This document shows positions 5,141-63,021 of a stretch of 64,000 nt of DNA, piece by piece (the first letter of the stretch is position 1; every line of letters begins with the position of its first letter). The position numbers and the translations under genes were made by a program. Below the pieces are notes generated by a model. That model saw nothing but the letters and a program-made list of their open reading frames with translations, had not been told where the DNA came from and did no database searches. Origin of the DNA: Burkholderiales bacterium (GTDB lineage: Bacteria; Pseudomonadota; Gammaproteobacteria; Burkholderiales; SG8-39); assembly GCA_035456405.1 (NCBI GenBank), contig DATIDG010000094.1, positions 8,625 to 72,624 on the forward strand, written 5' to 3'.

Positions 5141-5145
5141 CCGGC

Positions 5146-5994
5146 ATGCGCAGGCTATCGCTCGCGCTCGTCGCCGCGCTGCCGCTGCTCGCCGGCCTCT
5201 CGCCGTCGCGGGGGTCCACCGGCGAGTTCGACCTCGGCTACGATCCCTACGTCCCGACACCGCATTCGATCGTGGAGAGCATGCTCGCCTTCGCGCAGGT
5301 CGGCGCGGACGACCTCGTCGTCGATCTCGGCTCCGGCGACGGGCGCATCGTCATCGCCGCGGCCAAGCAGTTCGGCGCGCGCGGGCTCGGGATCGAGATC
5401 GACCGCACGCTGATCGCGGAGTCGCAGGAGCGCGCGCGGAAGGAGGGGGTCGCGGGCCGCGTGCGCTTCGTCGCGCGAGACCTCTTCGAGGCGGACCTGC
5501 GCGAGGCGACGGTCCTCACGCTCTACCTGCTTCCCGAGACCAACCGCAAGCTCGTGCCGAAGATCCTCGCCGAGATGCGCCCCGGCGCGCGCGTCGTCGC
5601 GCACCGCTTCGCGGCCGGCGACTGGCGGCCGGATGCGCAGGTGATCGTCGACGCCGGCGATGACTGGTCGGCGACGGGCAGGGAGCGGTGGCTCTACCTC
5701 TGGTACGTCCCGGCGCGCGTCGCAGGCGAGTGGGAGGTCGTGCACGAGGGCGGCGGCGCGTCGTTCCGCCTCGCGCTCGACCAGGCCTACCAGCGCATCG
5801 GAGGCGCCGCGATCGACGGCACGGCGCGCATCGGCCTCGAGCTCGCGGTGCTGCACGGTGGCGAGATCCGCTTCATCGTCCCCGGGCCGGAGCCGTTTGC
5901 GGGCGACTACGCCGGCCGGATCGACGGGGAGACGATGAGCGGGGACCTGAACGGCGGCAGGCGATGGCGCGCGGTGCGGAGGACGGGGCAATGA
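5146..5994 (+). CDS. Same methyltransferase family, tandem paralog 2
   Basis: The ATG at 5146 lies 5 nt after the paralog 1 stop. N-terminus MRRLSLALVAALPLLAG. Motifs YVPTPHSIVESML and VDLGSGDGRIVIAAAKQFGARGLGIE. The C-terminal domain is homologous to paralogs 1 and 3. Confidence 0.85.
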   Translation: MRRLSLALVAALPLLAGLSPSRGSTGEFDLGYDPYVPTPHSIVESMLAFAQVGADDLVVDLGSGDGRIVIAAAKQFGARGLGIEIDRTLIAESQERARKEGVAGRVRFVARDLFEADLREATVLTLYLLPETNRKLVPKILAEMRPGARVVAHRFAAGDWRPDAQVIVDAGDDWSATGRERWLYLWYVPARVAGEWEVVHEGGGASFRLALDQAYQRIGGAAIDGTARIGLELAVLHGGEIRFIVPGPEPFAGDYAGRIDGETMSGDLNGGRRWRAVRRTGQ

Positions 5995-6827
5995 CCGTGC
6001 GCGCCATGCGGCTCGCTTGTGCCGCGCTGCTGCTCGTCGCTACGGCGCCGCGCGCCGACGAGGTGCCGTACGTCCAGACTCCGCAGAATGTCGTCGAGGC
6101 GATGCTCGATCTCGCGGGGGTGCGCGGCAACGATTTCCTGATCGACCTCGGCTCCGGCGACGGGCGCATCGTCATCACCGCGGCGCAGAAGTACGGCACG
6201 CGCGGCGTCGGGATCGACTACGACAACTACCTGATCAAGGAGAGCACCGAGAACGCTGCGAAGGCCGGCGTGGCGGACCGCGCGCGATTCCTGAAGGAGG
6301 ACATCTTCGAAACGGACCTGACCGCGGCGACGGTGGTCACGATGTACCTGCTGCCCGAGTTCAACCTCCGCCTGCGGCCGAAGCTGCTCGCCGAGCTGCG
6401 GGCAGGCGCGCGCGTGGTGTCGCACGACTGGGACATGGGTGCGTGGGCGCCCGACGCGCGGATCGAGGTGCCTGCGCCCGACAAGAAGGTGGGGCTGCGC
6501 AAGGTGAGCACGCTCTACCTCTGGATCGTCCCGGCGCAGCTCGCGGGCAGGTGGGACACCCGCGTGCCGGTCGGCGACGGTGCGATGGACATCGAGCTCG
6601 AGATCGAGCAGTCCTTCCAGAACGTCGGCGGCATCGCGCGGATCGACGGGGCGGCACGGCCGATCGAGCGCGCGGCAGTGAAGGGGCGTTACGTCGAGTT
6701 CCGGTTCGACGCCCCCGGGGGCGGCGCAATCCGCTTCCAGGGCAACGCGTCGGCCGATCGGATCGTCGGGCAGGTGGCCACGCCGGACGGACGAATGCAT
6801 CCCTGGCGCGCGCTGCGCGCGAAGTAG
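5991..6827 (+). CDS. Same methyltransferase family, tandem paralog 3
   Basis: The ATG at 5991 overlaps the paralog 2 stop (ATGA). N-terminus MTVRAMRLACAALLLVATAP. Motifs YVQTPQNVVEAML and IDLGSGDGRIVITAAQKYGTRGVGID. Confidence 0.85.
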   Translation: MTVRAMRLACAALLLVATAPRADEVPYVQTPQNVVEAMLDLAGVRGNDFLIDLGSGDGRIVITAAQKYGTRGVGIDYDNYLIKESTENAAKAGVADRARFLKEDIFETDLTAATVVTMYLLPEFNLRLRPKLLAELRAGARVVSHDWDMGAWAPDARIEVPAPDKKVGLRKVSTLYLWIVPAQLAGRWDTRVPVGDGAMDIELEIEQSFQNVGGIARIDGAARPIERAAVKGRYVEFRFDAPGGGAIRFQGNASADRIVGQVATPDGRMHPWRALRAK

Positions 6828-11169: not shown

Positions 11170-11394
11170 CTAGCGGGAGGTGTGCTTGCGCGCTTCGAGT
11201 CGCGCGCGCACGGCGAGCTTCTCCTCGCGCGAATAGCCCGACCAGCAGGCGATCTCGTCGAGAGTGCGGTAGCAGCCGTCGCACAGGCCGGTCGCGTCGT
11301 TCATCCGGCAGACGTTGATGCACGGCGACGGCACGTCGCTGCCCGGGGCGTTCTGCGGCGCGGCGATTGACGGGATCGGGATGACGTTCTTCAC
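11170..11394 (-). CDS. DUF1289-like small Cys-rich protein
   Basis: [29 protein letters not shown] matches the DUF1289 cysteine pattern. The GTG at 11394 overlaps the hmgL stop (GTGA). It is the C-terminal tail of artefactual ORF 11170-12873. Confidence 0.6.
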
Positions 11395-12299
11395 GCCGCC
11401 CTCTTCGCAGCCAGCGCCTTCGCGACCTTCGACGTCGGCTCGCGGCCGAGCGCGGCGCAGATGAATCGGCCGGCCTCGAACACCTTCCCGAGGTCGACGC
11501 CGGTCGCGATCCCGAGCCCGTCGAGCATGTAGACGACGTCCTCGGTCGCGACGTTGCCGGACGCGCCCTTCGCGTAGGGGCAGCCGCCGAGGCCCGCGAC
11601 CGAGCTGTCCGCGGTGGCGACGCCCATCTCCAGGGCCGCGTACAGGTTGGCGAGCGCCTGGCCATAGGTGTCGTGCAGATGCACCGCGAGCCGGCCGATC
11701 GGCACCTCGCCGGCAACCGCGTCGATCATCGCGCGCACCTTGCCCGGCGTGCCGACGCCGATCGTGTCGCCGAGCGAGATCTCGTAGCAGCCCATCGCGT
11801 CCAGCGCTTTCGCCACCGCCGCAACCGCGGCCGGCGCGATCGGGCCCTCGTAGGGACACCCCGCGACGCAGGAGATATACCCGCGCATGCGCATGCCCTT
11901 CTCGCGCGCGGCCCGCGCGACCGGCGCAAACCGCTCCAGGCTCTCCGCGATCGAGCAGTTGATGTTCTTGCGGCTGAAGGTCTCCGACGCCGCGCCGAAG
12001 AGCGCGATCTCGTCGACGCCGGCCTCGACCGCGGACTCGAAGCCCTTCATGTTCGGCACGAGCACCGGGTACGACACCCCGGGCTTGCGGCGGATGCCCT
12101 TCAGCACCGCCGCGGAATCCGCCATCTGCGGCACCCACTTCGGCGACACGAACGCGCCGGCCTCGACCGCCGGCAGGCCGGCGTCGGCGAGCCGGTTCAC
12201 GAGTTCGATCTTCGTCGCGGTCGGGACGGTCTGCGGCTCGTTCTGCAGGCCGTCGCGCGGACCCACTTCGAAGATGCGGACTTTCGGCGGGAGTGCCAT
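11391..12299 (-). CDS. hmgL: Hydroxymethylglutaryl-CoA lyase
   Basis: 302-aa ORF with [15 protein letters not shown] and GLGGCPYA motifs. It lies in liu-cluster context. Confidence 0.92.
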
Positions 12300-12302
12300 C
12301 CC

Positions 12303-12312
12303 GCGATTCTAG
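12303..12312 (-). promoter_or_regulatory. CTAGAATCGC box (-10-like TAGAAT) 6 nt upstream of the hmgL ATG
   Basis: The gene-sense strand reads ggctaCTAGAATCGCgggATG. It is one of four identical 10-mers in the window. It also contains the TAG stop of the upstream gene. Confidence 0.3.
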
Positions 12313-13235
12313 TAGCCCCGCGCGGGGTCGACCACGCCGGTGATCGACTCGCCGCGCTCGATTGCGCGGATCTTGCCGGCGACCTGCGCGACCGACTCCT
12401 CGACGAGCGTCAGCGCCGAGACGTGGGGCGTGAGGAAGACCTTCGGGTGCGTCCAGAAGCGATGCGAGGCGGGCAGCGGCTCCTCGTGGAACACGTCGAG
12501 CGTCGCGCCGGCGAGGTGCCCATTGTCGAGGTGGGCGATGAGATCGTCGTCGACGACCAGCCCACCGCGCGCGACGTTCACGAGGTACGCGCCCTGGGGA
12601 AGCTTGCCGAGCGTGTCGCGGTTCAGCAGCCCGGCGGTGTCGGGCGTGAGCGGGAGCATGCACACGAGCGCGCGTGTCGCGCCGAGGAAGGCGTCGAGCC
12701 CGTCGCGGCCGGCGAACGTGCGCACTTCGGCGAGCGTCTTGGCGTTTGCGCTCCAGCCGAGAACCGGAAACCCGAGCCAGAGAAGCATCTTCGCGAGCCG
12801 CGTCCCGAGCACGCCCAGGCCCATCACGCCGACCGGGAACTCCGCGTGCGTGCGCGGGCGGTGAACCTTCCATTCGGCGCGCGCAGCTTGCGCGGCGTAG
12901 TCATCGAGGCGGCGGAAGTAGCGCAGTACCGCCCACGCGACGTACTCCCCCATCTGCCGTCCCATGCCCGCGTCCTCGAGGCGCACGAGCGGCACGCCGG
13001 GCGGGAGCGCGAACGCCTTCAGCGTCGCGTCGACGCCGGCGCCGAGGTTGAACGCCGCCTTGATCCGCGCCTGGCCGTCGAGGAGCTCGCGCGGAGGTTG
13101 CCAGAACGCGCAATAGTCGGCCTCCCACGCGAAGCCGGGCGACCACATCCGGATCTCTGCTTCGGGCAGCGCGCGCGCGAACGCCTCCCGCCACTCGTCT
13201 GCGTTTTTCGAGGGAATGTGGAGAAGGACTTTCAA
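12309..13235 (-). CDS. ghrA: D-2-hydroxyacid dehydrogenase, glyoxylate/hydroxypyruvate reductase A-like
   Basis: 308-aa ORF. The N-terminal pattern (...ADYCAFWQPPRELL...KAAFNLGAGVDATL) parallels E. coli GhrA as I remember it. A GVMGLGVLG NAD(P) motif is present. Confidence 0.7.
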   Translation of the reverse strand: MKVLLHIPSKNADEWREAFARALPEAEIRMWSPGFAWEADYCAFWQPPRELLDGQARIKAAFNLGAGVDATLKAFALPPGVPLVRLEDAGMGRQMGEYVAWAVLRYFRRLDDYAAQAARAEWKVHRPRTHAEFPVGVMGLGVLGTRLAKMLLWLGFPVLGWSANAKTLAEVRTFAGRDGLDAFLGATRALVCMLPLTPDTAGLLNRDTLGKLPQGAYLVNVARGGLVVDDDLIAHLDNGHLAGATLDVFHEEPLPASHRFWTHPKVFLTPHVSALTLVEESVAQVAGKIRAIERGESITGVVDPARGY

Positions 13236-13278
13236 CGGGTCCTGCGTCGCTTCGGCACGGCCGGGTCGACGACGGTCG

Positions 13279-15279
13279 CTAAGTCGCGTCGAAGCGAACG
13301 AGCTCGGCGCCTTCGGCCACCTGGTCGCCGACGCCGTAGAGGATCTCCTTCACGCTGCCGGCCGCCGGCGCCATGATCGTGTGCTCCATCTTCATCGCTT
13401 CCATGATGAGGATCGGCACGCCGCGCTCTACCTTCGCGCCAGCTTCCACCAGTACCGCGATCACCTTGCCGGGCATCGGCGCGGTGAGGCCGCCACCGTG
13501 CGCGTCGGCCTCCACCTCGGCGAGCCAAGGGTCGTGGAGCTCCAGGGTGTGCCGCTCGCCGGTGTGAAACACGTCGATGGTCGTCCCGCCGCGTGTCACC
13601 GTCGCGGCGAGCGACTCGTCGTCGAGCCAAGCGCGCACGCCCGTTTCGCCGTCCGCCTCGCAGGACAGCATGCGGCGTCCGCCCGGCAGCTCGACCTCGA
13701 AGGCGTTGCCCGGCCGGTAGTGCACCGTGACCGCGTGCTGCCGGTCGCCCACCCTGAAGACGAAGACGTGGTGGTTGTCCTGGTTTAGGCGCCAGCCGTC
13801 GCAGTCACTCCAGGGCGACCAGGGATCTCCCGACGCCACCGCATGTGCCCGCGCCTCGCGGCCGAGGCGCAGTAGCTGCGCGGACGTCGCAAGCGCGAGC
13901 ACTTCGTCGGGCAAGGGCGCCGGCGGCGGGAACAGCTCGTCGCGCGAACGCTCGATCAGGCCGGTGTCGAGGTCGGCGCTCGCGAACGCGCTCGACGACA
14001 CGAGCCGGGAGAGGAAGCCGATGTTGGTGGTCAGGCCGACGATCTCGAATTCGCCGAGTGCGTCTTTCATCCGCCGCAGCGCCGCGGCCCGGTCCCGGTC
14101 CCAGACGATCAGCTTCGCGATCATCGGGTCGTAGTGCGGCGAGATTTCGTCCCCGGCGGCGACGCCGGTGTCGACGCGCACGTGCCGTGAGGCCGCAGGC
14201 GTAGCGAGATGCACGATTCGCCCGGTCGCGGGCAGGAAGCCCTTCGCCGGGTCCTCGGCGTACACCCGCGCCTCAAGTGCGTGGCCGTCGATCACGAGCT
14301 CGTGCTGCTTCTTCGGCAGCGGCTCGCCCCACGCCACGCGGAGCTGCCACTCGACGAGGTCCTCGCCGGTGATCATCTCGGTCACCGGGTGCTCGACCTG
14401 CAGGCGTGTGTTCATCTCCATGAAATGGAACGTGCCCGACTGGTCGGCGATGAACTCCACCGTGCCGGCGCTCACGTAGCCGATCGCCTTCGCCGCGGCG
14501 ACCGCGGCCGCGCCCATGGCGGTGCGGCGGTCGGCGGACATGCCCGGCGCAGGCGCTTCCTCGAGCACTTTCTGGTGGCGGCGCTGCACCGAGCAGTCGC
14601 GCTCGAAGAGGTACGCGCAGTTGCCGTGCCGGTCCGCGAACACCTGGATCTCGATGTGCCGCGGGCGGCGGAGGTACTTCTCGACCAGCACCCGGTCGTC
14701 GCCAAAGGCCGAGGCCGCCTCGCGTTTGCACGATGCGAGCGCCGCGGCGAAGTCCGCTGCGCTCTCGACGATCCGCATGCCCTTGCCGCCGCCGCCGGCG
14801 GAGGCCTTGATCAGTACCGGGTAGCCGATGCGGTCGGACTGGCCCTGCAGATACTTCGCGTCCTGCTTGTCGCCGTGATAGCCCGGCACCAGCGGGACGC
14901 CGGCCTTCTCCATGATCGCCTTCGCCGCGCTCTTCGAGCCCATCGCGCGGATCGCGGCTGCCGGCGGGCCGATGAACGCCACGCCCGCCTTTTCGCAAGC
15001 CTCGGCGAAGTCCTCGTTCTCCGAGAGGAACCCGTAGCCGGGATGGATCGCCTGCGCGCCCGATCGCCTGGCCGCCTCGAGGATGCGGTCGCCGCGCAAG
15101 TAGCTCTCCTTCGCTGCCGCCGGCCCGACGAGATAGGCCTCGTCGGCCGCGCGCACGTGCTGCGCGCGCGCGTCCGCCTCCGAGTAGACCGCGACGGTCT
15201 TGATGCCGAGGCGGCGGGCGGTGCGGATGACGCGGCACGCGATCTCGCCGCGGTTGGCGATGAGGATCTTGCTAAACAT
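13279..15279 (-). CDS. mccA: 3-methylcrotonyl-CoA carboxylase alpha subunit (biotin carboxylase + BCCP)
   Basis: MFSKILIANRGEIACRVIRT is a biotin carboxylase N-terminus. The C-terminal biotinylation motif EAMKMEH is present. The track start at 15282 is a TTG one codon upstream of the ATG at 15279. Confidence 0.92.
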   Translation of the reverse strand: MFSKILIANRGEIACRVIRTARRLGIKTVAVYSEADARAQHVRAADEAYLVGPAAAKESYLRGDRILEAARRSGAQAIHPGYGFLSENEDFAEACEKAGVAFIGPPAAAIRAMGSKSAAKAIMEKAGVPLVPGYHGDKQDAKYLQGQSDRIGYPVLIKASAGGGGKGMRIVESAADFAAALASCKREAASAFGDDRVLVEKYLRRPRHIEIQVFADRHGNCAYLFERDCSVQRRHQKVLEEAPAPGMSADRRTAMGAAAVAAAKAIGYVSAGTVEFIADQSGTFHFMEMNTRLQVEHPVTEMITGEDLVEWQLRVAWGEPLPKKQHELVIDGHALEARVYAEDPAKGFLPATGRIVHLATPAASRHVRVDTGVAAGDEISPHYDPMIAKLIVWDRDRAAALRRMKDALGEFEIVGLTTNIGFLSRLVSSSAFASADLDTGLIERSRDELFPPPAPLPDEVLALATSAQLLRLGREARAHAVASGDPWSPWSDCDGWRLNQDNHHVFVFRVGDRQHAVTVHYRPGNAFEVELPGGRRMLSCEADGETGVRAWLDDESLAATVTRGGTTIDVFHTGERHTLELHDPWLAEVEADAHGGGLTAPMPGKVIAVLVEAGAKVERGVPILIMEAMKMEHTIMAPAAGSVKEILYGVGDQVAEGAELVRFDAT

Positions 15280-15283
15280 CAAT

Positions 15284-15371
15284 CACCGCAAAGCCGCAGA
15301 GAGCGCCAAGCCACGCAAAGAATCACTTGGCCTTCCTCTGCGTCCTTTGCGCTCTCTGCGGCTTTGCGGTG
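15284..15371. repeat. REP-like palindromic element: perfect 23-bp inverted repeat with 42-nt spacer
   Basis: CACCGCAAAGCCGCAGAGAGCGC (15284-15306) is the exact reverse complement of 15349-15371. The spacer has nested CCAAG/CTTGG and CGCAAAG/CTTTGCG pairs. The element lies between mccA and liuC and overlaps the liuC 3' end. Confidence 0.85.
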
Positions 15372-16171
15372 GAGGGTTTGGCGTCGGCGACCCAGCTGGG
15401 CTTGCGCTTCTCGAGGAACGACCGGATCCCTTCCTTGCCCTCGTCGGACGCGCGGGCGGTCGCGATCCGGGTCGCGGTATCGCCGATCAGGTCGTCGTCG
15501 ATCGCGCGGCCGGCGACGGCACGAATCAGCTCCTTTGTCGCCGCATGCGCGGCCGGGCCGCCGGAAACGAGATGCCCGAGGATCACGTTGACCGTCCCGT
15601 CGAGCTCCTCGTCCACGGCGATCTCCTGCACGAAGCCGATGCGGTAGGCCTCGGCGGCGGTGAAGCGCTCCGCCGTGAGCATGTAGCGGTATGCCGCGCG
15701 GGCGCCCATCGCGGCGAGGACGTACGGGCTGATGGTCGCCGGGATCAGCCCCAGCTTTACTTCCGAGAGGCAGAACTCGGCGCCGTGCGCGGCGACCGCG
15801 ATGTCGCACGCGGCAACGAGGCCCATGCCGCCGGCGAAGGCCGGCCCGTGCACGCGCGCGACGGTCGGCTTCCTCATCGCATAGAGCGCGTTCAGCATGC
15901 GCGCCAGCCCGAGCGCGTCCGCGTGGTTCTGCTCGAAGCTGAACCCCGACATGCGCTTCATCCAGTTCAGGTCCGCGCCCGCGCAGAAGGCGGGCCCGTG
16001 GCCGGCGAGCACCATCGCGCGCATCGCGGCGTCGCCGTCGACCGCGCGGAACGCGTCGGTCAGCTCCGCGATCATGGTCTCGTCGAATGCGTTGCGGACG
16101 TCCGGGCGGTTGAGCCAGACGAGCGCGATGCCAGAGGGGTTCTTGTCGAGCTGGATGGTTTCGTAGGTCAT
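15323..16171 (-). CDS. liuC: Methylglutaconyl-CoA hydratase (crotonase family)
   Basis: MTYETIQLDKNPSGIALVWLNRPDVRNAF and GHGPAFCAGADL motifs. The ATG at 16171 overlaps the upstream ACAD stop (ATGA). The last roughly 17 codons are encoded by the palindromic element. Confidence 0.85.
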   Translation of the reverse strand: MTYETIQLDKNPSGIALVWLNRPDVRNAFDETMIAELTDAFRAVDGDAAMRAMVLAGHGPAFCAGADLNWMKRMSGFSFEQNHADALGLARMLNALYAMRKPTVARVHGPAFAGGMGLVAACDIAVAAHGAEFCLSEVKLGLIPATISPYVLAAMGARAAYRYMLTAERFTAAEAYRIGFVQEIAVDEELDGTVNVILGHLVSGGPAAHAATKELIRAVAGRAIDDDLIGDTATRIATARASDEGKEGIRSFLEKRKPSWVADAKPSTAKPQRAQRTQRKAK

Positions 16172-17319
16172 GGAGAGAATCGCTTGGCCACTTCTTCGAG
16201 CATCACCTCGGTCGCGCCGCCGCCGATCGCGAGCACGCGGGCGTCGCGGACCAGGCGCTCGATCGGGCTCTCGCGCATGTAGCCCATGCCGCCGTGGAAC
16301 TGCTGGCAGGCGTACATCACCTCGTTCGCCAGCTCGCCGGTCAGCGCCTTGAGCGCCGACACCTCCCGCACGCACTCGCGGCCCGCGCTCACGAGCCAGG
16401 CGCAATGATAGAGGAAAGCCCTTGCCGACTGGACCTTCGCGTCGAGCATTGCGAGGCGCTGCCGGATCACCTGCTTGTCGAAGAGCGTGGCGCCGAAGGC
16501 CGCCCGGTTCGTCACCCAGTCGAGCGTGAGCTTCAGCGCCGTCTGGCAGTGCCCGATCGCCATCGCGCCGAGCGCGATCCGCTCGGTCTGAAAGTTGCGC
16601 ATGATGGCGTAGAAGCCCTGGTTCTCGGCGCCGAGGAGGCTGCCGGCCGGGATGCGGCACGCCTCGAACACGAGCTCGGCGGTGTCGGACGAGAGCCAGC
16701 CCTGCTTCTTCAGCGCGCGGCCCACGCGAAAGCCGGGCGTGCCCTTCTCGACGACGAACATCGAGATGCCGCGCGCGCCCTTGTTCTCCACGTCGGTGCG
16801 CGCCGCGACGAAGTAGAGGTCGCCGTGCACGCCATTGGTGATGAACATCTTGGTGCCGTCCAGCACCCAGGCATCGCCGTCACGCCGCGCGCGCGTCCGG
16901 ATCGCCGCGACGTCGGAGCCGGCGTCCGGCTCCGTCACCGCGACCGCGGTCACCAGCTCGCCGGCGATCACCCTGCGCAGGTACTTGTCGAGCTGCGCCT
17001 TCGAGCCGCCGTGGACGAGATGCGGGCTCGCCATGTCCGTGTGCACGAGCACAGTCACGATGAAGCCGCCGAACGTCGAGCGCGACAGCGCTTCCTGGAA
17101 CACGACCGAGGTGATCGCGTCGGCGCCGGCGCCCCCGTACTCCGGCGGATACGTGATGCCGAGCAGGCCGAGGGCCCCGAGCTTGCGGATCACGCTGCGC
17201 GGAACGCATCCCTGCTCCTCCCACGCCTCGCCGTGCGGCTCGACCTCCTCGGCGAGGAAGCGCGCGATCGTCGCGCGTAGCTGCTCATGCTCGGGCGTGA
17301 TGTAGACGGCGTCCGGCAT
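16168..17319 (-). CDS. Acyl-CoA dehydrogenase (not the canonical isovaleryl-CoA type)
   Basis: The ATG at 17319 gives MPDAVYITPEHEQLRATIARFLAEEV. ACAD motifs VTEPDAGSD and QFHGGMGY are present. Confidence 0.88.
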   Translation of the reverse strand: MPDAVYITPEHEQLRATIARFLAEEVEPHGEAWEEQGCVPRSVIRKLGALGLLGITYPPEYGGAGADAITSVVFQEALSRSTFGGFIVTVLVHTDMASPHLVHGGSKAQLDKYLRRVIAGELVTAVAVTEPDAGSDVAAIRTRARRDGDAWVLDGTKMFITNGVHGDLYFVAARTDVENKGARGISMFVVEKGTPGFRVGRALKKQGWLSSDTAELVFEACRIPAGSLLGAENQGFYAIMRNFQTERIALGAMAIGHCQTALKLTLDWVTNRAAFGATLFDKQVIRQRLAMLDAKVQSARAFLYHCAWLVSAGRECVREVSALKALTGELANEVMYACQQFHGGMGYMRESPIERLVRDARVLAIGGGATEVMLEEVAKRFSP

Positions 17320-17326
17320 CGCCCGT

Positions 17327-18934
17327 CTACATGCGGAACACGCCGAACTTCGTCTCCTCGACCGGCGCATTAAGGGCGGCCGACAGGCCGAGCGCGAGCA
17401 CGCGGCGCGTGTCCTCGGGCGCGATCACGCCGTCGTCCCAGATCCGCGCGGACGCGTAGTACGGGTGGCCCTGGCGGTCGTACTGCTCGAGGATCGGCTT
17501 CTTGAACGCCTCCTCCTCGTCCTTCGACCAGGCTCCGCCCTTCGCCTCGATGGCGTCGCGGCGCACGGTGGCGAGCACGCTCGCCGCCTGCTGGCCGCCC
17601 ATCACGCTGACGCGCGCGTTCGGCCACATCCAGAGGAAGCGCGGGCTGTAGGCGCGCCCGCACATGCCGTAGTTGCCGGCGCCGTACGAGCCGCCAATGA
17701 TCACGGTGAACTTCGGCACCCTGGCCGTCGACACGGCGGTCACCATCTTCGCACCGTCCTTCGCGATGCCGCTCGCCTCGTACTTCTTGCCGACCATGAA
17801 GCCGGTGATGTTCTGCAGGAAGAGAAGCGGGATGCCGCGCTGGCCGCAGAGCTCGATGAAGTGCGCCGCCTTCATCGCCGACTCCGAGAAGAGGATCCCG
17901 TTGTTCGCGACGATGCCGACCGGGTAGCCCCAGACGCGCGCGAAGCCAGTGACGAGGGTCGTGCCGTAGTTCTGCTTGAACTCGTCGAGCTCGGAGCCGT
18001 CGACGATGCGCGCGATCACTTCGCGCACGTCGTAGGGCTTGCGGATGTCCGCAGAGATGATTCCGCCGATCTCGTCGGGCGGGTAGAGCGGTTCGCGCGG
18101 TTCGGTCACCGTCGTGCCCACCCGCTTCGAGCGGTTGAAGTTCCTCACGATGCGCCGGGCGATGGCGAGCGCATGGTGGTCGTTGATTGCGTAGTGATCG
18201 GCGACCCCGGACTGGCGGGTGTGCACATCGGCCCCACCCAGCTCCTCCGGCGACACGACCTCGCCGGTCGCCGCTTTCACGAGCGGCGGGCCGCCGAGGA
18301 AGATCGTGCCCTGCCCCTTGACGATGACCGCCTCGTCGGACATCGCCGGCACGTAGGCGCCGCCGGCGGTGCACGAGCCCATCACCGCGGCGATCTGCGG
18401 GATGCCGGCCGCCGACATGTTGGCCTGGTTGTAGAAGATGCGGCCGAAGTGGTCGCGGTCGGGGAACACCTCGTCCCAGGTCGGCAGGTTCGCGCCGCCC
18501 GAGTCCACGAGGTAGATGCACGGCAGCCGGTTCTGCGCCGCGATCTCCTGGGCGCGAACGTGCTTCTTGACCGTCATCGGGAAGTAGGTGCCGCCCTTGA
18601 CGGTCGCGTCGTTGGCGACGATCACGCATTCGTGGCCCGCGATGCGCCCGATGCCGGTGATGATCCCGGCGCCCGGGGCCTCGTCGCTGTACATCCCGTA
18701 CGCGGCGAGCTGGGAGAGCTCCAGGAACGGGGACCCGGGATCGAGCAGCGCCCGGACCCGCTCGCGCGGCAGGAGCTTCCCGCGGGCGACGTGCCGGGCG
18801 CGCGAACTCTCGTCGCCGCCGAGCGCGATGCGTTCGACCTTCTTGCGCAGGTCGGTGACGAGCGCACCCATCGCCGCGGCGTTCGCGCGGAACTCCTCGG
18901 AGCGGGGATTGATTGCGGTGCGCAGCGCGGCCAT
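17327..18934 (-). CDS. mccB: 3-methylcrotonyl-CoA carboxylase beta subunit (carboxyltransferase)
   Basis: The ATG at 18934 gives a 535-aa product, [22 protein letters not shown]... It has [26 protein letters not shown]. The 360 upstream residues of track ORF 17327-20014 are Arg-rich artefact. Confidence 0.92.
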
Positions 18935-18963
18935 TGTCGGAGGCAGCGGATCGTGGGAGGCAG

Positions 18964-18973
18964 GCGATTCTAG
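18964..18973 (-). promoter_or_regulatory. CTAGAATCGC box, candidate extended -10 promoter of mccB
   Basis: The gene-sense strand reads cTGcTAGAATCGCc, 32 nt upstream of the mccB ATG. A TGn extended -10 context is present. Confidence 0.4.
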
Positions 18974-19066
18974 CAGCGGCGCCGGGCAGCACGCCGGCCC
19001 GTCCCGACCTATACTCGGCGTGCGCCGCGTCCGCGTCGCGGCAGTCGGTTCCCGGTCTCGTCCCCA

Positions 19067-35364: not shown

Positions 35365-35715
35365 ATGTCTGCACCGACCCCCGCCAAGCCCAGAGGCTCC
35401 CGCGTCGCCTGCTCGGTGCGCACGAGCGACGGCGCCAACGGCGTCTATTCCGTCTTTCCCGGCGCGGAGCCCAAGTCGATCGGCACCGTCGAAGCGGTCA
35501 AGTGGGACAAACAGCCGACCGGTCCGGTCACGCAAGGCGTCTTCACGATCATCGGCGAGATGGGGATGACTGGCCAGGTGATCCTGGTCGACCAATTCAA
35601 GTGGGAAGCGCTGCAGAAGACCAAGCTCGAGAACCACTTCTACGCGGCGCTCCTCTGGGGCGGAACGCCGCTGAAAGTCGTCGACGACGCGGTGGTGATG
35701 ACGAAGCGGGGCTGA
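35365..35715 (+). CDS. Hypothetical protein, no family recognised
   Basis: 116-aa ORF. It starts 19 nt after the thiolase stop, with GGAG 8 nt upstream of the ATG. Its composition is non-repetitive and non-Arg-biased (…VEAVKWDKQPTGPVTQGVFTIIGEMGMTGQVILVDQFKWEALQK…). Confidence 0.6.
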   Translation: MSAPTPAKPRGSRVACSVRTSDGANGVYSVFPGAEPKSIGTVEAVKWDKQPTGPVTQGVFTIIGEMGMTGQVILVDQFKWEALQKTKLENHFYAALLWGGTPLKVVDDAVVMTKRG

Positions 35716-35716
35716 G

Positions 35717-36865
35717 CTAGCGCCCCTCGAACAGCTTTCGGGCGATGATCTCCTTCATGATCTCGTTCGCCCCACCATATATGCGCTGAACGCGGGCGTC
35801 GGCCCAGGCGCGCGCGATCGGGTATTCCCGCATGTAGCCGTAGCCGCCGTGCAGCTGCAGGCAGGCGTCGATGACGCGGTTCTGCATGTCGGTCAGCCAG
35901 TACTTCGCCATCGACGCGGTCGCGGTGTCGAGCTTGCCCTCGAGGTGGAGCGCGATGCAGTGGTCGAGGAACGCGCGGCCGATCGTCACCTCGGTGTGCG
36001 CCTCGGTGAGGGCGAAGCGCACGTGCTGCTTCTCGGCGAGCGGCGCGCCGAAGGCCTTGCGCTCCCGCACGTAGTCCACTGTCCACCGGATCGCCGACTC
36101 GGCGGCGGCGACCGCGCCGATCGCGACGAGCAGGCGCTCCTGGGGCAGCTGTGACATGAGGTAGCCGAAGCCCTTGCCCTCTGCGCCGAGCAGGTTTGAT
36201 GCGGGTACGCGCACCTCGTCGAAGAGCAGCTCCGAGGTGTCCTGGGCGTGCATCCCGACCTTCTCGAGGTTGCGACCGCGCGCGAACCCGGGACGGTCGG
36301 CCTCGACCAGCACGAGGCTCACGCCTTTCGCGCCTGCTTCCGGATCGGTCTTCGCCGCGACAAGGAACAGGTCGGCGATCTGGCCGTTCGAGATGAAGAT
36401 CTTCTGGCCGCTGATCACGAGTTCGTCGCCATCCCGCCGCGCCCGCGTGCGGATCGCGGCGACGTCGCTGCCGGTGCCCGGCTCGGTCATGCAGATGCCG
36501 GAGATCGTCTCGCCAGTGGCCATTCGCGGCAACCACTTGCGCTTCTGATCCTCGCTCCCGTAGTGGATCAGGTACGGCGCGACGATGTCCGAGTGCAGGT
36601 AGAAAAGCGGCCCGGTCGCCCCCGCCCAGCACAGCTCCTCGGTGACGATCGTCGAGAGCAGGAAGTCGCCGCCCCCGCCGCCGTACTCGGCCGGTAGTGC
36701 GGGGCAGAGGAAGCCCAGCTCGCCCGCCTTGCGCCACAGCTCGCGCGGAACCTGCCCCCGCTCCTCCCAGTCGCCGTGATGCGGCGCGACTTCGCGTTCG
36801 ACGAATCGCCGGACGGTCTCGCGGAAGGCGTAATGCTCGTCGGTGTAGGGGAGGGTGAAGCTCAT
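35717..36865 (-). CDS. Acyl-CoA dehydrogenase
   Basis: 382-aa ORF, MSFTLPYTDEHYAFRETVRRFVEREV..., with MTEPGTGSD and QLHGGYGY motifs. Confidence 0.9.
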   Translation of the reverse strand: MSFTLPYTDEHYAFRETVRRFVEREVAPHHGDWEERGQVPRELWRKAGELGFLCPALPAEYGGGGGDFLLSTIVTEELCWAGATGPLFYLHSDIVAPYLIHYGSEDQKRKWLPRMATGETISGICMTEPGTGSDVAAIRTRARRDGDELVISGQKIFISNGQIADLFLVAAKTDPEAGAKGVSLVLVEADRPGFARGRNLEKVGMHAQDTSELLFDEVRVPASNLLGAEGKGFGYLMSQLPQERLLVAIGAVAAAESAIRWTVDYVRERKAFGAPLAEKQHVRFALTEAHTEVTIGRAFLDHCIALHLEGKLDTATASMAKYWLTDMQNRVIDACLQLHGGYGYMREYPIARAWADARVQRIYGGANEIMKEIIARKLFEGR

Positions 36866-36869
36866 CGCG

Positions 36870-37301
36870 TCAGGCGTGCTTGGCGTCGTGGGGCCGGGAA
36901 GTGACGTAGACCGTGCCGGTGAACGAGGAGACCGGCGTCCCGTCCGCCCGCGTCACGTCCACACGATACACGCCCAGCCGGCGCGTGCGCGTGATCTCGA
37001 TCGCGTTTGCGGTCAGCACGTCGCCGGCCTGCACCGCGACCTGGTAGGTGATGTGCGCGTCGATGCCGGCGGCGATAGTGCCGTGCGAGTTGGAGGCGAG
37101 CCCGAACGCGGTGTCGGCGAGCGCGAAGATCACGCCACCGTGGCAGCTCCCGTTGAAGTTGAGATGGTCCCTGCGCACCTTGAGCGAGACCGCCGCGCGG
37201 CCGAAGCCGCCGTCGATGCATTCGATTCCGAGACTGCGAGTGAGCGGATCGTGCGCAGCCATGTGCGCGATCCGCTTGCGGGCCTGTTCGTCGCGATCCA
37301 T
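36870..37301 (-). CDS. PaaI-family hotdog thioesterase
   Basis: 143-aa ORF. NFNGSCHGGVIFALADTAFG is a PaaI/4HBT class II motif. Confidence 0.85.
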   Translation of the reverse strand: MDRDEQARKRIAHMAAHDPLTRSLGIECIDGGFGRAAVSLKVRRDHLNFNGSCHGGVIFALADTAFGLASNSHGTIAAGIDAHITYQVAVQAGDVLTANAIEITRTRRLGVYRVDVTRADGTPVSSFTGTVYVTSRPHDAKHA

Positions 37302-37331: not shown

Positions 37332-38651
37332 TCAATCCGGAAAGCCGAGCAGCCGGACGAAGCCCGCCACGGGCTCGCCCGCCGCGTCGGCGCCGTTCTC
37401 GCGGGACTTGGGATCGGGATAGCCGAGCTTCAGCGCGGCGACCACGATCTCGTTTGCGGCGAGCCCGAGCTCGTGCTCGATCACGTCGTGGTAACGCGCC
37501 ACCGAGGTGCGGGAGAACGCCACGAGGCCGCGCGCCCGCGCCGCCGCGAGCAGCGCCTCGATGTGCATGCCGCAGTCGAGCCAGTCGCCGCGCCCGAGCG
37601 GCCACGCCGCGGTGTAGATCAGTGCGAGCGGCGCGCCCGATGCCGGTTCACCGAGGCCTGCGGCCTGCAGCGCGGCGACGAGCCGCGCGAGCGGTTCCCC
37701 CGCGAGAACATAAACGCGCCACGGCGGGTCGCCGCTCGTGGCGAGCGCCGGGCGCGCCGCCGCGAGGACCGCTTCTACGGTTTCGCGCGAGACCGGCGCC
37801 GGGAGCAGCGCCTGAGGTGTCCGATGCGAGACGAGCGCGCGATCGACCGCAGCCCGGTCGTCCGCGCTGACCGGCGGCTGCGCCCGCAGCCGGCGACCGC
37901 GCCCGGCGAACGCGGCGTGCGTGTCGATCGCATCCACGAGCTCCGGCGTCCCTTCCTTGGTGGTGGCGGTCGTGCGCAGCACGCGCACCTCCCACTCGCC
38001 CCGCCGGCGCAGCCTGAGCATCTCGCGCAGGGCGCGTTCGGTGTCGACGGCGAGCGGCGAGTCACCCTTGTTCACCACCAGGATGTCGGCGATCTCGAGG
38101 ATGCCCGCCTTGATCGCCTGCACGTCGTCGCCCAGGCCGGGCGCGCACACGACGATACGCGTGTCCGCGATCCCGGCCACCTCCACTTCCGACTGCCCGG
38201 TGCCGACCGTCTCGACCAGGATGGTGTCGAACCCCGCCGCGTCGAGGACGTCCACGATCCGGCTCGTCTGGCGCGACAGGCCGCCGAGGTGGCCGCGCGA
38301 TGCGACCGAGCGGATGAACACCCGGTCGTCGCTCCCGTGCTCGCCCATGCGCACGCGGTCGCCCAGCACGGCGCCGCCGGTGACGGGGCTCGACGGATCG
38401 ACTGCGACAACGCCGATCCGCCGGCCGCGCGCGAGCAGCTCGCCGAGCAGGGCGTTGATCAGCGTGGACTTGCCCGAGCCGGGCGCGCCGGTGATGCCGA
38501 TCGCGTGCGCGCTTCCGACGTGGGGCGCCATCGCCGCGTTCAGCGCGGCGCTCTCGCGGCTCTCCGTCTCGACCGCCGTGATCGCGCGCGCGATCGAGCG
38601 CCGGTCGCCGGCGCGAACCGGGGCGAGGAGCGGGTGATCAGCGGGATTCAT
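37332..38651 (-). CDS. MeaB/ArgK-type G-protein chaperone fused to a C-terminal nitroreductase-like domain
   Basis: The N-terminal 270 aa or so carry GITGAPGSGKSTL, DPSSPVTGGAVLGDRVRM, VETVGTGQSE and NKGD. The C-terminal 165 aa or so carry VSHRTPQALLPAPVSRETVEAVLAAARPALATSGDPPWRVYVL...LKLGYPD, a nitroreductase-fold pattern. Confidence 0.8.
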   Translation of the reverse strand: MNPADHPLLAPVRAGDRRSIARAITAVETESRESAALNAAMAPHVGSAHAIGITGAPGSGKSTLINALLGELLARGRRIGVVAVDPSSPVTGGAVLGDRVRMGEHGSDDRVFIRSVASRGHLGGLSRQTSRIVDVLDAAGFDTILVETVGTGQSEVEVAGIADTRIVVCAPGLGDDVQAIKAGILEIADILVVNKGDSPLAVDTERALREMLRLRRRGEWEVRVLRTTATTKEGTPELVDAIDTHAAFAGRGRRLRAQPPVSADDRAAVDRALVSHRTPQALLPAPVSRETVEAVLAAARPALATSGDPPWRVYVLAGEPLARLVAALQAAGLGEPASGAPLALIYTAAWPLGRGDWLDCGMHIEALLAAARARGLVAFSRTSVARYHDVIEHELGLAANEIVVAALKLGYPDPKSRENGADAAGEPVAGFVRLLGFPD

Positions 38652-38762: not shown

Positions 38763-40436
38763 TCACACGATAGCCTGAACGTGCCCGAAGCCGAGCTCCT
38801 TGCGCAGCCGCCCGCAGATCTCGCCGTGCGTGCAGCCCGCCTCGGCGGCTTCGACCACCTTGGCGAACACGTTCTCGCCGGGATCTTGCGCGGCCGCGCC
38901 GAGCGCGTCGAGCGCCTTGCGCACCGCGGCCTCGGGGCGCGCTGCCTTGTACGCCCTGAACGCCTCGATGTGCGCCTTCATGTGCGACGGATCGGGCTTC
39001 TCGAGCGGCTGCCGCGCGCTGCGGTCCTCGTCCACCCGGTACGCGTTCACGCCCACGATCGTCTGCTCTCCCGACTCGACCCTGGCCTGGAACTGCCGCG
39101 CCGACTCGCCGATCATCTTCTGCACGAGGCCGCCCTCGACCGCCTTGTACATCCCGCCCGCGTCCTCGACCAGCTTCATGATGCGGAGGCACTCGGCCTC
39201 CATCTGGTCGGTGAGCCGCTCGACGTAGTAGCTCCCGCCGAGCGGGTCGATCACGTCGGTCAGGTGCGCCTCCTCGCGCAGGATGTTCTGCGTGGCCACC
39301 GCGATCCGCGCGCCCGCCTCGGTCGGGCAGGACAGCGCCTCGTCGTAGCTGTCGGTGTGCAGCGACTGGAGGCCGCCGAAGATGCCGGCCATCGCCTGCA
39401 CCGCGACGCGCGCGACGTTGTTGAGCGGCTGGGCGCGCGTGAGATCCACGCCCGAGGTCTGCGCGTGGAACTTGAAGCGCCACGAGCGCGGGTCCTTCGC
39501 GCCCCACCGCTCGCGCGCGACGCGCGCCCAGATGCGCCGGCCGGCGCGGAACTTCGCGATCTCTTCGAAGAACGAGATCGAGATGTCGAAGAAGAACGTG
39601 AAGCGCGGCAGGAACTGGTCCGGGTCCATTCCGCGCGCGGCGCAGTCGTCGGCGTTCTGGATCGCGGTCGAGAGCGTGAAGGCCATCGCCTCCGCCGGGT
39701 TCGCGCCGCCCTGCTGCATGTGCTGGCCGACGACCGACATCGGATTCCACTTCGGCACGAAGCGGTTGCAGTACTCGATGTGGTCCGCGAGGATGCGCCG
39801 CGCGCCCGGCAGCGCGATGCGGAAGAACATGTGGTTCGCGACGTAGTGCGAGAGGTAGTCGCTCTGGTTCGAGGTCCCGCTGATCAGGCGCCAGTCGACG
39901 CCGCGCCGCTTTGCCGTCGCCAGCAGGAAGGCGAGGAGCGTGAACGGGCTCGGATCGTTCATCGCGCAGGAGGTCCGCGCGAGATCGACGCCCTCGAGCG
40001 CGCGTTCCATGTGGTCGGCGGAATTGACGACCGTTCCGCAGGTGCCGAGAAGCTCCTCGTGCACCTCGTCCATGTCGTAGCCGCGGAACACGGAGTTGCA
40101 CGGGATGAGCGAGATCGCGTTCGTGCCCCGGTCGACGAGGTCGCGCAGGCGCGCGTTGTAGTCGGCCGGCGTGCCGAGCCCGACGAGCTGGCGCTGCGAC
40201 CAGGTACGGCCGCGATGCATGGTCGCGTAGATGCCGCGCGTGTAGGGCGGCTGGCCGGGAAAGCCCAGGGCCTCGTCGTACCGCGCCGGATCGACGTCGC
40301 GCGGCGTGTAGAGCGGCTTGATCTCGATGCCGGAGCGGTTGGCGATCGCCTCGTCCGCGCCGATCTGCGCGGCGTACTCGTCCTGCCAGCGGGCCTCGGG
40401 GGTGTCGAGCAGCTTGGTCTCGAGAGGCTTGTTCAT
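38763..40436 (-). CDS. Methylmalonyl-CoA-mutase-family large (substrate-binding) subunit, divergent subfamily
   Basis: 557-aa [46 protein letters not shown] and [13 protein letters not shown] are clearly acyl-CoA mutase motifs. Several pocket motifs are non-canonical (see findings). Confidence 0.85.
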
Positions 40437-40450
40437 TGCTGACTCCGGGA

Positions 40451-40873
40451 TCAGACTGTGGCGCGTGCGGCGCGCACGCGCCGCGCCGCTTCACGGATGT
40501 ACTGTGCGATCTCCTCGAGCCCGGCGCCGGGGTGAAAGATCCTGGCGACGCCACTGCGCAGGAGGAGATCCTCGTCCTCGTCGGGCACGATCCCGCCGAC
40601 GATCACTGCGACGTCGCCCAGTCCGGCGGCGCGCAGCGCGTCCATCACCTTCGGCACGATCAGGTGGTCGGTCGCGAGCGAGGAGATGCCGATCACGTCG
40701 ACGTCCTCCTCGGTCGCCAGCTTGACGACCGTCGCGATCTCCTGCCATGGCGGCGTGTAGATCACCTCCATGCCCGCGTCGCGCAGGTACGCCGCGACCA
40801 CGCGGCTGCCGCGGTCGTGGCCGTCGAAGCCGATCTTCGTGATCAACACTTTTGGTCGGATGTCCATCGTCAT
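40451..40873 (-). CDS. Acyl-CoA mutase small subunit, cobalamin-binding domain
   Basis: The ATG at 40873 overlaps the tetR stop (ATGA). The 140-aa product has DGHDRG (DxHxxG), GISSL (SxL) and VGGIVP (GG). Confidence 0.9.
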
Positions 40874-41472
40874 TCCTGGTCCAGTTCGCTGCGCAGCAGC
40901 GCGACGAAGCGCCGCGCGATCGTCCGCGGACTGTCGCGGCCCGGGTGGTACCAGGTCTGCGACCAGTTGAGCGCGCCGAGCAGCATCAGCCGCACGCTGC
41001 GGCGGTCGACGCCGCGCGCGAGCGGCAGCGCCTGCACGAGGTCGACGAAGAGTCTTTCGTACTCGTCCCGGCGCCTCACCAGCTCGCCGGCGACGGTCGG
41101 CGCATCGGCCGGGCGCACGCGGATGACGACCTGCGCGTAGTCGCCCGCGCTGTTCTCCGAAAGCAGCAGCCCCTCGAGATGCGCCACGCACGCGGCCTCG
41201 AGACGTTCCCACGGCTCGCGTTTGCCGGCGATCGCCGCGCTCACCGCCTCCGAGATGCGCCGCACGCCTTCCGCGTAAACCGCGGCAAGCAGCGCCTCCT
41301 TGGTGGCGAAGTGGTAGTAGAGGGAGCCCGGCAACATGTCGATCGCGCGCACGATGTCGCGCACCGACGTGCCGTGGAACCCCTGCACGGCGAACAGGCG
41401 CGCCGCCTCGTCCAGGATCAGAGGCAGGCGGTTGTCGGCACGCGGGACGCGGGCGGGGCGGGCGGGAGGCAT
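40870..41472 (-). CDS. TetR/AcrR family transcriptional regulator
   Basis: 200-aa ORF. The N-terminal HTH is FHGTSVRDIVRAIDMLPGSLYYHFATKEALL. Confidence 0.9.
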   Translation of the reverse strand: MPPARPARVPRADNRLPLILDEAARLFAVQGFHGTSVRDIVRAIDMLPGSLYYHFATKEALLAAVYAEGVRRISEAVSAAIAGKREPWERLEAACVAHLEGLLLSENSAGDYAQVVIRVRPADAPTVAGELVRRRDEYERLFVDLVQALPLARGVDRRSVRLMLLGALNWSQTWYHPGRDSPRTIARRFVALLRSELDQE

Positions 41473-62466: not shown

Positions 62467-63021
62467 TCAGCGCGCCGGGACGGTCCAGAAGTGGATCTCG
62501 TGCCGCCGGCCGTTCACGATCAACGTTTCGGTGCGGTCGGGCAGCCAGTCGCCGATTCGGTATTCGTGCGACACGACGCGCGTGCCCGGCTTGAGCTCGC
62601 GCGCGAGCTTCGGCTGGAGCTTCGCATTGACGGTGGGGAAGAGATAGAGCGCCACCACCGTGGCGTCGCGCAAGTCGGTCTCGAATAGATCCTCGATGCG
62701 GAACGCGACGCGGTCGGCGACCCCGACGCGCTCGGCGATCGCGCGCGCGTCGCGGACCCACACCGGGTTGAGCTCGATTCCCACGCCCCGCGCGCCGTAA
62801 CGCTGCGCGGCGGTGATCACGATGCGGCCGTCGCCCGAGCCGAGGTCGTACACCACGTCGTCCTTGCCGACCCGAGTCAGCTCGAGCATGCGCTCGACGA
62901 CGGGCATCGGCGTCGGCACGTAGTTGATGTCCGGCGCGCGATCCTGCGCAGCCGCGCTGCCCGCGCAAAGGACCACTGCCAGCAGGAGGACGCGCCGCTC
63001 AGAAGTCGATCGGATCGACAT
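62467..63021 (-). CDS. FAM173/ATPSCKMT-like methyltransferase, fourth paralog (methyltransferase domain only)
   Basis: 184-aa ORF with a hydrophobic N-terminus (RRVLLLAVVLCAGSAAAQ). YVPTPMPVVERML and YDLGSGDGRIVITAAQRYGARGVGIE are present. It lacks the C-terminal domain of the tandem copies. Confidence 0.85.
   Translation of the reverse strand: MSIRSTSERRVLLLAVVLCAGSAAAQDRAPDINYVPTPMPVVERMLELTRVGKDDVVYDLGSGDGRIVITAAQRYGARGVGIELNPVWVRDARAIAERVGVADRVAFRIEDLFETDLRDATVVALYLFPTVNAKLQPKLARELKPGTRVVSHEYRIGDWLPDRTETLIVNGRRHEIHFWTVPAR

Follow-up and report, generated by a model that had tools for sequence, protein, structure and literature searches.

MeaB and MMAA are a model for G-protein gating of metallocofactor delivery, and their defects lead to methylmalonic aciduria; in current mechanisms MeaB acts as a dimer, the protomers of which rotate by ~180 degrees around a C-terminal arm. 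A 64,000-nucleotide stretch from a Burkholderiales bacterium (GenBank assembly GCA_035456405.1, contig DATIDG010000094.1, positions 8,625 to 72,624; referred to here as the window) encodes a member of this family, designated here as MeaB-NTR, in which a nitroreductase-fold domain takes the place of the arm. MeaB-NTR resembles MeaB/MMAA (2QM7, 8DPB and 2WWW) in its N-terminal extension, P-loop, switches I to III, NKxD motif and the location of its gene directly downstream of a B12-dependent mutase, but it differs from them in lacking the helical dimerisation arm and in its client, which is a mutase other than the methylmalonyl-coenzyme A (CoA) mutase served by MeaB/MMAA. In IcmF, a MeaB-like G domain is also fused to a domain of the B12 system, but in that case to the mutase itself, between its B12-binding and substrate-binding domains; the window protein reached 129 bits against the IcmF model NF045497 (cutoff 1500), and the mutase subunits are encoded by separate open reading frames (ORFs) in the window. 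The closest annotated cassette is that of plasmid pXAUT01 (Xaut_5042 with Xaut_5043/5044), which has the same order of genes for a TetR regulator, a small and a large mutase subunit, MeaB and a PaaI thioesterase, followed by genes for a CoA ligase and an ABC transporter, whereas its MeaB (Xaut_5042) is, unlike the window protein, a canonical protein of 329 amino acids (aa) with a helical arm.

The first ~250 residues of MeaB-NTR constitute a complete MeaB-type G3E GTPase domain. The Pfam MeaB profile (PF03308) matched with 285 bits (cutoff 23.1) and the NCBIfam model TIGR00750 with 297.8 bits (cutoff 240.75), and the P-loop, switches I to III and the NKxD motif, as defined for MeaB (PMC9974510), were all located, including each of the G-motifs quoted in the initial annotation of this gene. 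Residues D175, Q178 and K181 of switch III were shown to be invariant among 118 fused homologues. The assignment as a genuine MeaB chaperone beside a B12-dependent acyl-CoA mutase was borne out.

The PF03308 match spans only positions 1-240 of the 273 positions of the profile, indicative of a missing C-terminal arm, i.e. the helical extension that represents the dimerisation element of MeaB (PMC9974510). The dimerisation helices are also absent from the predicted full-length structure, in which the last helix of the G domain (aa 235-249) leads through a low-confidence linker into a nitroreductase fold. The junction carries a G250/G252/R254 motif that is invariant across the fused family, followed by a stretch that is probably flexible, with predicted local distance difference test (pLDDT) values of 49-68 over aa 251-280.

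The C-terminal domain was shown to descend from flavin mononucleotide (FMN) nitroreductases of the PnbA/NfnB type. The Nitroreductase profile PF00881 (gathering cutoff 23.5) gave 38.9 bits with the whole protein and 42.2 bits with the C-terminal half alone, so that both parts of the protein scored above the cutoffs of their respective Pfam profiles. The AlphaFold2 prediction for aa 256-439 (pLDDT averaging 81) matched nitroreductases of the PDB with a Foldseek probability of 1.00, the top matches being 3GR3, 7DP0-2 and 2WZV, and a phmmer search of the PDB retrieved 3GR3 (E 1.2e-18), aligned in two blocks with ~60 residues missing in between. The replacement of the dimerisation arm by a nitroreductase-fold domain, as proposed in the initial annotation, was thereby confirmed, although with a domain length of ~175 aa (266-439) rather than 165 aa. 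Full-text literature searches turned up no report on a fusion of MeaB with a nitroreductase, in line with the initial annotation, to which no described fusion to a flavoreductase-like domain was known; as far as found, the architecture is therefore unpublished, while the sequences are public and not rare in databases.

Comparison with structurally characterised PnbA nitroreductases (Sphingopyxis NfnB, 7DP0; the Bartonella enzyme, 3GR3; Mycobacterium smegmatis NfnB, 2WZV) revealed a shared alpha+beta core, alpha6 dimer helix and extended C-terminal tail, whereas the middle region and the Arg/Ser/Arg/Arg set of FMN-binding residues of these enzymes are deleted or degraded in the window protein. 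In NfnB, the ribityl phosphate of FMN is bound by Arg18, Ser20, Arg22 and Arg219, the protruding middle region Val75-Tyr129 forms the substrate-binding wall, and an obligate homodimer buries 7006 Å2 through an alpha2-alpha6-alpha6*-alpha2* arrangement and a swapped C-terminal strand (PMC8484813). The equivalents of the four FMN-binding residues in MeaB-NTR are H276, T278, Q280 and G425, of which T278 is a conservative exchange and the other three are replacements, and the middle region of ~60 residues is reduced to 10. The FMN tail-binding set is thus degraded and the substrate wall deleted, and a working flavoreductase that would process the cofactor reductively, as suggested for this gene in the initial annotation, is not supported. 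The dimer elements of PnbA enzymes (alpha2/alpha6 and the swapped C-terminal segment), on the other hand, are present, the dimer itself being predicted by the fold.

The scaffold of the domain also occurs in cobalamin trafficking in animals, in MMACHC (CblC) and MMADHC (CblD), and its flavin site appears to have been lost, as in CblD. No homology to these proteins was detectable beyond the superfamily fold: neither MMACHC/CblC nor MMADHC/CblD was retrieved in a profile search of the PDB at E <= 10 or among the top 50 fold matches. The BluB model TIGR02476 gave 17-18 bits (cutoff 150), over the N-terminal ~55 residues only. The kinship to CblC or BluB that had been put forward for this domain is consequently not upheld, its nearest relatives being of the PnbA type, and judged by these comparisons the recruitment of a nitroreductase in this case is independent of CblC/CblD and from a different subgroup. 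Derivation from a stand-alone nitroreductase linked to the pathway was also rejected, as the nearest stand-alone relatives (~235 aa, 30-40% identical) are encoded in unrelated contexts. The gene of the nearest of these, a PnbA-type enzyme, overlaps an upstream 4HBT thioesterase gene by 4 nt (locus L015, 5558-6723), with no mutase gene around it; a recurrent pairing of thioesterase and nitroreductase is possible.

The fusion represents a single real gene. The ORF starts with ATG and comprises 439 codons and one stop codon, with zero in-frame stops, and its G+C content at third codon positions (GC3) is 0.80-0.95 per block of 40 codons, the domain junction included, indicative of continuous coding periodicity. 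Scanning of genomes for patterns specific to C-terminal domains of this type identified five betaproteobacterial/Burkholderiales metagenome-assembled genomes (MAGs), one of which is labelled Enterobacteriaceae, and four of the five (L003, L004, L006 and L007) were shown to carry the complete fusion gene as a single ORF, with 62-70% identity to the window in the C-terminal domain. A search with the full-length protein retrieved over 115 clusters, defined at 90% identity, that combine PF03308 and PF00881, and three proteins of the NCBI nr database with this architecture (MCG6876831.1, MCL4800548.1 and UCG96448.1) are annotated as MeaB only. An initial impression of rarity, based on ~5 relatives retrieved with the C-terminal domain alone, reflected a limit of the word-index search. 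At 50% identity the fused family is reduced to two or three representatives, and it therefore forms one compact, narrow, Burkholderiales-like clade. MeaB-NTR is thus a genuine, conserved and clade-restricted domain swap in a well-studied chaperone.

That a sequencing or assembly frameshift had merged meaB with a separate nitroreductase gene, which the initial annotation had named as a possible objection, is next to impossible. Split versions of the gene do occur in some noisy assemblies, but only in those that are visibly frameshifted: in one (L001, 5562-8559; ENA ERZ25039502, contig_81777), which otherwise matches L004, frameshifts split both the mutase and the MeaB-NTR genes, and the gene is likewise split in a second (P0303). 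The single frame and continuous periodicity in the window, the identical architecture in the four MAGs as well as in over 100 clusters drawn from many samples, and the absence of both a canonical MeaB arm and a separate start argue against a merger. The splitting in L001 looks like an assembly error and accounts for a stand-alone 152-aa 'nitroreductase'.

Alignment of 117 fused clusters with the window protein distinguished two forms of the fusion. Long forms (74 clusters; 485-521 aa, mostly 488-520 aa) retain a middle region of 60-62 aa and, in all 74, the three FMN-binding arginines, with the serine equivalent to Ser20 conserved in 71 and replaced by Ala in the other three. Short forms, among which the window protein is counted (43 clusters; 428-451 aa), carry a stub of ten residues instead, and none of the 43 retains the first FMN-binding arginine, the position being occupied by His, Gln, Leu, Tyr, Glu or a gap. 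An intermediate of 451 aa (P0132) combines a partial deletion (a middle region of 23 aa) with intact FMN-binding residues; when it is counted with the long forms (n=75), all possess the three arginines, and 72 the serine (Ala in three). A protein of 408 aa (P0302) was observed to carry a further-reduced fused nitroreductase-like domain (~145 aa) that falls under Pfam detection, and long forms, short forms and this remnant represent a series of progressive reduction. The long form is proposed to be the ancestral form of the fusion, and its domain, with these residues in place, probably is a competent FMN enzyme.

In short forms, conservation collapses in the active-site loops, while elements of the core and of the dimer interface are better maintained. 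Values in short versus long forms were 0.57 and 0.88 for the RxSxR loop, 0.45 and 0.94 for the SGTNxQPW loop and 0.53 and 0.98 for the DTCPQ segment of beta3, compared with 0.76 and 0.82 for alpha1, 0.80 and 0.83 for beta1, 0.77 and 0.91 for the dimer helix alpha6 and 0.79 and 0.81 for beta4. These data bear on the notion that the window domain retains activity as a minimal FMN nitroreductase or flavin reductase and feeds electrons into the repair of cob(II)alamin. Such an activity would fit a PF00881 score above the gathering threshold, the activity of minimal nitroreductases of ~170-185 aa, such as YdjA, and the almost invariable retention of catalytic determinants in long forms; yet the replacement of three of the four FMN tail-binding residues, the deletion of the substrate wall and the loss of conservation of active-site loops specifically in short forms render it highly unlikely.

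Comparison of the window with the four MAG orthologues by the Nei-Gojobori method yielded ratios of non-synonymous to synonymous substitution (dN/dS) of 0.13-0.42 for the degenerate domain and of 0.11-0.28 for the G domain of the same pairs, from which it follows that the nitroreductase-like domain is under purifying selection. It is accordingly quite unlikely that the domain is a functionless relic in the process of being lost, with any dimerisation proceeding through the G domains only: the reduction series that ends in the 408-aa protein and the faster evolution of the domain relative to the G domain would suit a relic, but dN/dS is well under 1, the frame is intact in all complete assemblies, and the 43 short-form clusters keep a confidently predicted, folded core.

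A subset of residues has become invariant within one subgroup of the short forms. At the start of the dimer helix, all 23 clusters of the subgroup to which the window protein belongs carry Cys360, the position being Tyr in long forms and in a second short-form group, and Asp356, Pro309, Arg381 and Pro412 are likewise subgroup-specific invariants. The main alternative to a structural role draws on these residues, as well as on purifying selection: the domain may be a ligand-binding module in cofactor trafficking, a bacterial counterpart in function to CblC/CblD that would bind cobalamin, or a flavin in a non-canonical manner, during the off-loading of damaged cofactor from the mutase. Human MMACHC and MMADHC offer a precedent as divergent nitroreductase-fold proteins of B12 trafficking, the latter being flavin-free, and a preprint describes a Co-S thiolate mechanism for MMADHC (bioRxiv 10.1101/2023.07.25.550549). 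This alternative is nevertheless considered unlikely, as the searches mentioned above retrieved neither protein, the second short-form group keeps Tyr instead of Cys360, the middle region that forms the cavity has been lost, and the same cassette operates with a canonical MeaB in Xanthobacter. A more elaborate version, in which the nitroreductase scaffold was recruited independently into a B12 chaperone in parallel to CblC/CblD, is more doubtful still; the FMN domain of long forms would then be the long-sought, built-in cob(III)/cob(II)alamin reductase, which regenerates cofactor taken from the mutase and hands it to the adenosyltransferase, and short forms would act as flavin-free, CblD-like adaptors that hold cobalamin, maybe with Cys360 as a cobalt ligand during the off-loading of damaged cofactor.

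The C-terminal domain is more probably a catalytically dead, obligate-dimer fold, i.e. a pseudoenzyme that serves as a dimerisation hub in place of the MeaB arm, and since the parts that bind FMN and substrate have been lost, a structural pairing module rather than a reductase is the most likely role. MeaB-NTR would act as the dedicated G-protein chaperone of the adjacent two-subunit adenosylcobalamin-dependent acyl-CoA mutase, with a G domain that, as in MeaB/MMAA, would gate the loading of adenosylcobalamin and the removal of damaged cofactor in a GTP-dependent manner. The nitroreductase-like domain, joined to the G domain by the conserved GRGRRLR motif and a short flexible linker, would provide a permanent dimer tether, allowing switch III of one protomer to complete the GTP site of the other once the B12 domain of the mutase has bound, by analogy with the cross-protomer mechanism of MeaB (PMC9974510). 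In the window lineage, loss of the middle region and of the FMN-tail arginines would have left a domain that is probably flavin-free, whereas the long-form relatives probably contain a working FMN enzyme, for which a role in cofactor repair, by reducing cob(III)/cob(II)alamin or free flavin, would be an attractive idea.

Several points weigh against a dead dimerisation hub. Dimerisation through the domain is predicted from its fold, and His276 could still provide weak binding of phosphate, which is also possible through the arginine that about half of the close relatives retain at the position of R219. Minimal nitroreductases such as YdjA (183 aa, and among the fold matches) bind FMN without a middle region. 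The newly invariant Cys360, Asp356, Pro309 and Arg381 may point to a new ligand site instead of mere structural compensation. Finally, phylogenies disagree on whether short forms arose once or twice: in a neighbour-joining tree of the G domain they are placed in two clades, each beside long forms, while in a tree of the nitroreductase core most short forms group together on long branches and six members of the second group are found beside long forms.

Replacement of the MeaB arm was shown to extend beyond nitroreductases. On a plasmid of Diaphorobacter sp. HDW4B (NZ_CP049906.1; locus L013, 9634-10821; WP_166071533.1, annotated in RefSeq as meaB only), the PaaI hotdog thioesterase of the cassette has taken the place of the arm, and three metagenomic proteins (P0307, P0312 and P0314) also combine a MeaB G domain with a PaaI hotdog thioesterase. 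These fusions share with MeaB-NTR the cassette, the truncation of MeaB at profile position ~238-245 and the substitution of the arm by a domain that is probably oligomeric, but their partner is the downstream thioesterase and not a nitroreductase. Among the nearest MeaB relatives (clustered at 50% identity), several have a profile match cut at ~238-245, with 4HBT, XdhC or MobA-like domains beyond it; the canonical arm is absent from the nearest relatives examined, each of which has another domain at that location. Both the hotdog and the nitroreductase folds are oligomeric, and XdhC is a dimer. As the same cassette occurs with a canonical (Xanthobacter) or a thioesterase-fused (Diaphorobacter) MeaB, catalytic nitroreductase function is dispensable for the pathway. 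Four close MeaB relatives with the same truncation point (P0304, P0305, P0306 and P0309) were found to carry XdhC_CoxI/XdhC_C or a MobA-like nucleotidyltransferase, which suggests that MeaB-like G domains have been recruited to systems for molybdenum-cofactor insertion.

The genetic context of MeaB-NTR (Table 1) is conserved. In every locus examined, the cassette consists of genes for a TetR-family regulator, a B12-binding small subunit, a large subunit (557-564 aa), MeaB-NTR and a PaaI-type thioesterase, in this order; the two mutase subunit genes are located directly upstream of MeaB-NTR in the window, and in the same order in eight further loci. Further downstream there are often genes for an acyl-CoA dehydrogenase, a thiolase, a CoA ligase and an ABC transporter of the branched-chain type.

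The large subunit is most similar, within the PDB, to 2-hydroxyisobutyryl-CoA mutase (HCM; 4R3U), and its specificity positions differ from those of both HCM and methylmalonyl-CoA mutase (MCM). The position of MCM Tyr89 is Leu in this clade and Ile in HCM, the segment that reads AFDLAT in MCM and DFDMPT in HCM is SLIPCNS, and the position of MCM Arg207 is Asn as opposed to Gln in HCM. The best annotated relative is Xaut_5043 of Xanthobacter autotrophicus Py2 (66% identical, the next class of matches being at ~40%), with which the window protein shares the signature RQL[IV]GLGT / SL[IL]PC[NC]S / [IV]ANH and an identical cassette. We take Xaut_5043/5044 to be pivalyl-CoA mutase, an enzyme said to have been characterised by Kitanishi, Cracan and Banerjee (in J Biol Chem, 2015). 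NCBIfam contains no equivalog model for this subunit, and a protein with 79% identity to it bears the JGI annotation 'pivalyl-CoA mutase large subunit'. A liu-type leucine/isovalerate cluster in the window encodes an HMG-CoA lyase, a 2-hydroxyacid dehydrogenase, a methylcrotonyl-CoA carboxylase alpha subunit (BT_MCC_alpha), an enoyl-CoA hydratase, an acyl-CoA dehydrogenase and a carboxyltransferase, and would consume isovaleryl-CoA if the client were pivalyl-CoA mutase. Both the JGI name and this cluster agree with such an assignment, and the client is probably a pivalyl-CoA/isovaleryl-CoA mutase, as far as sequence and context indicate its substrate. No adenosyltransferase or other cobalamin gene was detected among the ~60 of 65 window ORFs that were scanned.

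Table 1. Positions in the window of MeaB-NTR, its sequence elements and the other genes mentioned in the text
Feature	Position	Strand	Evidence
Whole coding sequence of MeaB-NTR, MeaB G-protein chaperone + nitroreductase-like domain, 439 aa + stop	37332..38651	-	ORF call, Pfam, NCBIfam
N-terminal extension + G3E GTPase domain, aa 1-249	37905..38651	-	Pfam MeaB aa 20-251, E 5e-85
P-loop GAPGSGKST, aa 55-63	38463-38489	-	motif
Switch I DPSSPVTGGAVLGDRVRM, aa 85-102	38346-38399	-	motif
Switch II ETVGTGQSE, aa 147-155	38187-38213	-	motif
Switch III GLGDDVQAIKAG, aa 172-183	38103-38138	-	motif
NKGD base-specificity motif, aa 194-197	38061-38072	-	motif
Junction/linker GRGRRLRAQPPVSADD, aa 250-265	37857..37904	-	invariant columns, pLDDT, profile end
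Degenerate PnbA-type nitroreductase-fold domain, aa 266-439	37335..37856	-	PF00881, phmmer, Foldseek
Remnant of RxSxR FMN-tail motif, SHRTPQ, aa 275-280 (H276, T278, Q280)	37812..37829	-	alignment
Ten-residue stub, ~aa 331-341, at site of deleted 60-62-aa middle region	37629..37661	-	alignment
alpha6-equivalent helix (main PnbA dimer-interface helix) DWLDCGMHIEALLAAARARGL, aa 354-373	37533..37592	-	model, conservation
Cys360, start of dimer helix	37572-37574	-	
Gly425 at fourth FMN phosphate-binding position (NfnB Arg219; GEPV here, REPV in long forms)	37377..37379	-	alignment
TetR-family regulator, heads cassette	40870..41472	-	Pfam, synteny
B12-binding small subunit of the mutase, 140 aa, with His-on motif DGHDRG	40451..40873	-	
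Client mutase large subunit, 557 aa, Xaut_5043 clade	38763..40436	-	Pfam, PDB, sequence comparison
PaaI-type hotdog thioesterase, last conserved cassette gene	36870..37301	-	Pfam, NCBIfam, synteny
Acyl-CoA dehydrogenase, downstream in same operon direction	35717..36865	-	Pfam
116-aa ORF	35365-35715	+	
liu-type leucine/isovalerate cluster	11391-19000	-	
Three tandem ~288-aa paralogues	4274-5140, 5122-5994, 5964-6827	+	
ORF related to the ~288-aa paralogues	62467-63021	-	

Two further observations concern other genes of the window. An ORF of 116 aa with good coding statistics has no match in Pfam, NCBIfam or the PDB; a gene of 116 aa is found next to the cassette in three other loci (L001, L002 and L008), at the corresponding site and in the corresponding orientation, and the ORF thus represents a conserved member of the gene cluster. 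Elsewhere, three tandem paralogues of ~288 aa were observed, each combining a hydrophobic N-terminus with a class I methyltransferase-like/DOT1-like domain, and a fourth ORF, at the opposite end of the window, is related to them.

The MeaB-NTR fusion marks a little-studied clade of acyl-CoA mutases (probably pivalyl-CoA mutases) that appears to be common in soil Burkholderiales-like bacteria, a clade of relevance to the breakdown of compounds with quaternary carbons. The window copy has lost the features on which a reductase hypothesis was founded, and the long-form relatives are candidate reductases of cobalamin or flavin linked to a chaperone; the pair of long and short forms illustrates cleanly how an enzyme domain becomes a structural pseudoenzyme. 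For the MeaB family, a lineage in which the arm has been exchanged for another dimeric fold offers a ready-made test of the need for the arm, with an intact FMN nitroreductase, a gutted version thereof and a hotdog thioesterase as natural arm swaps.

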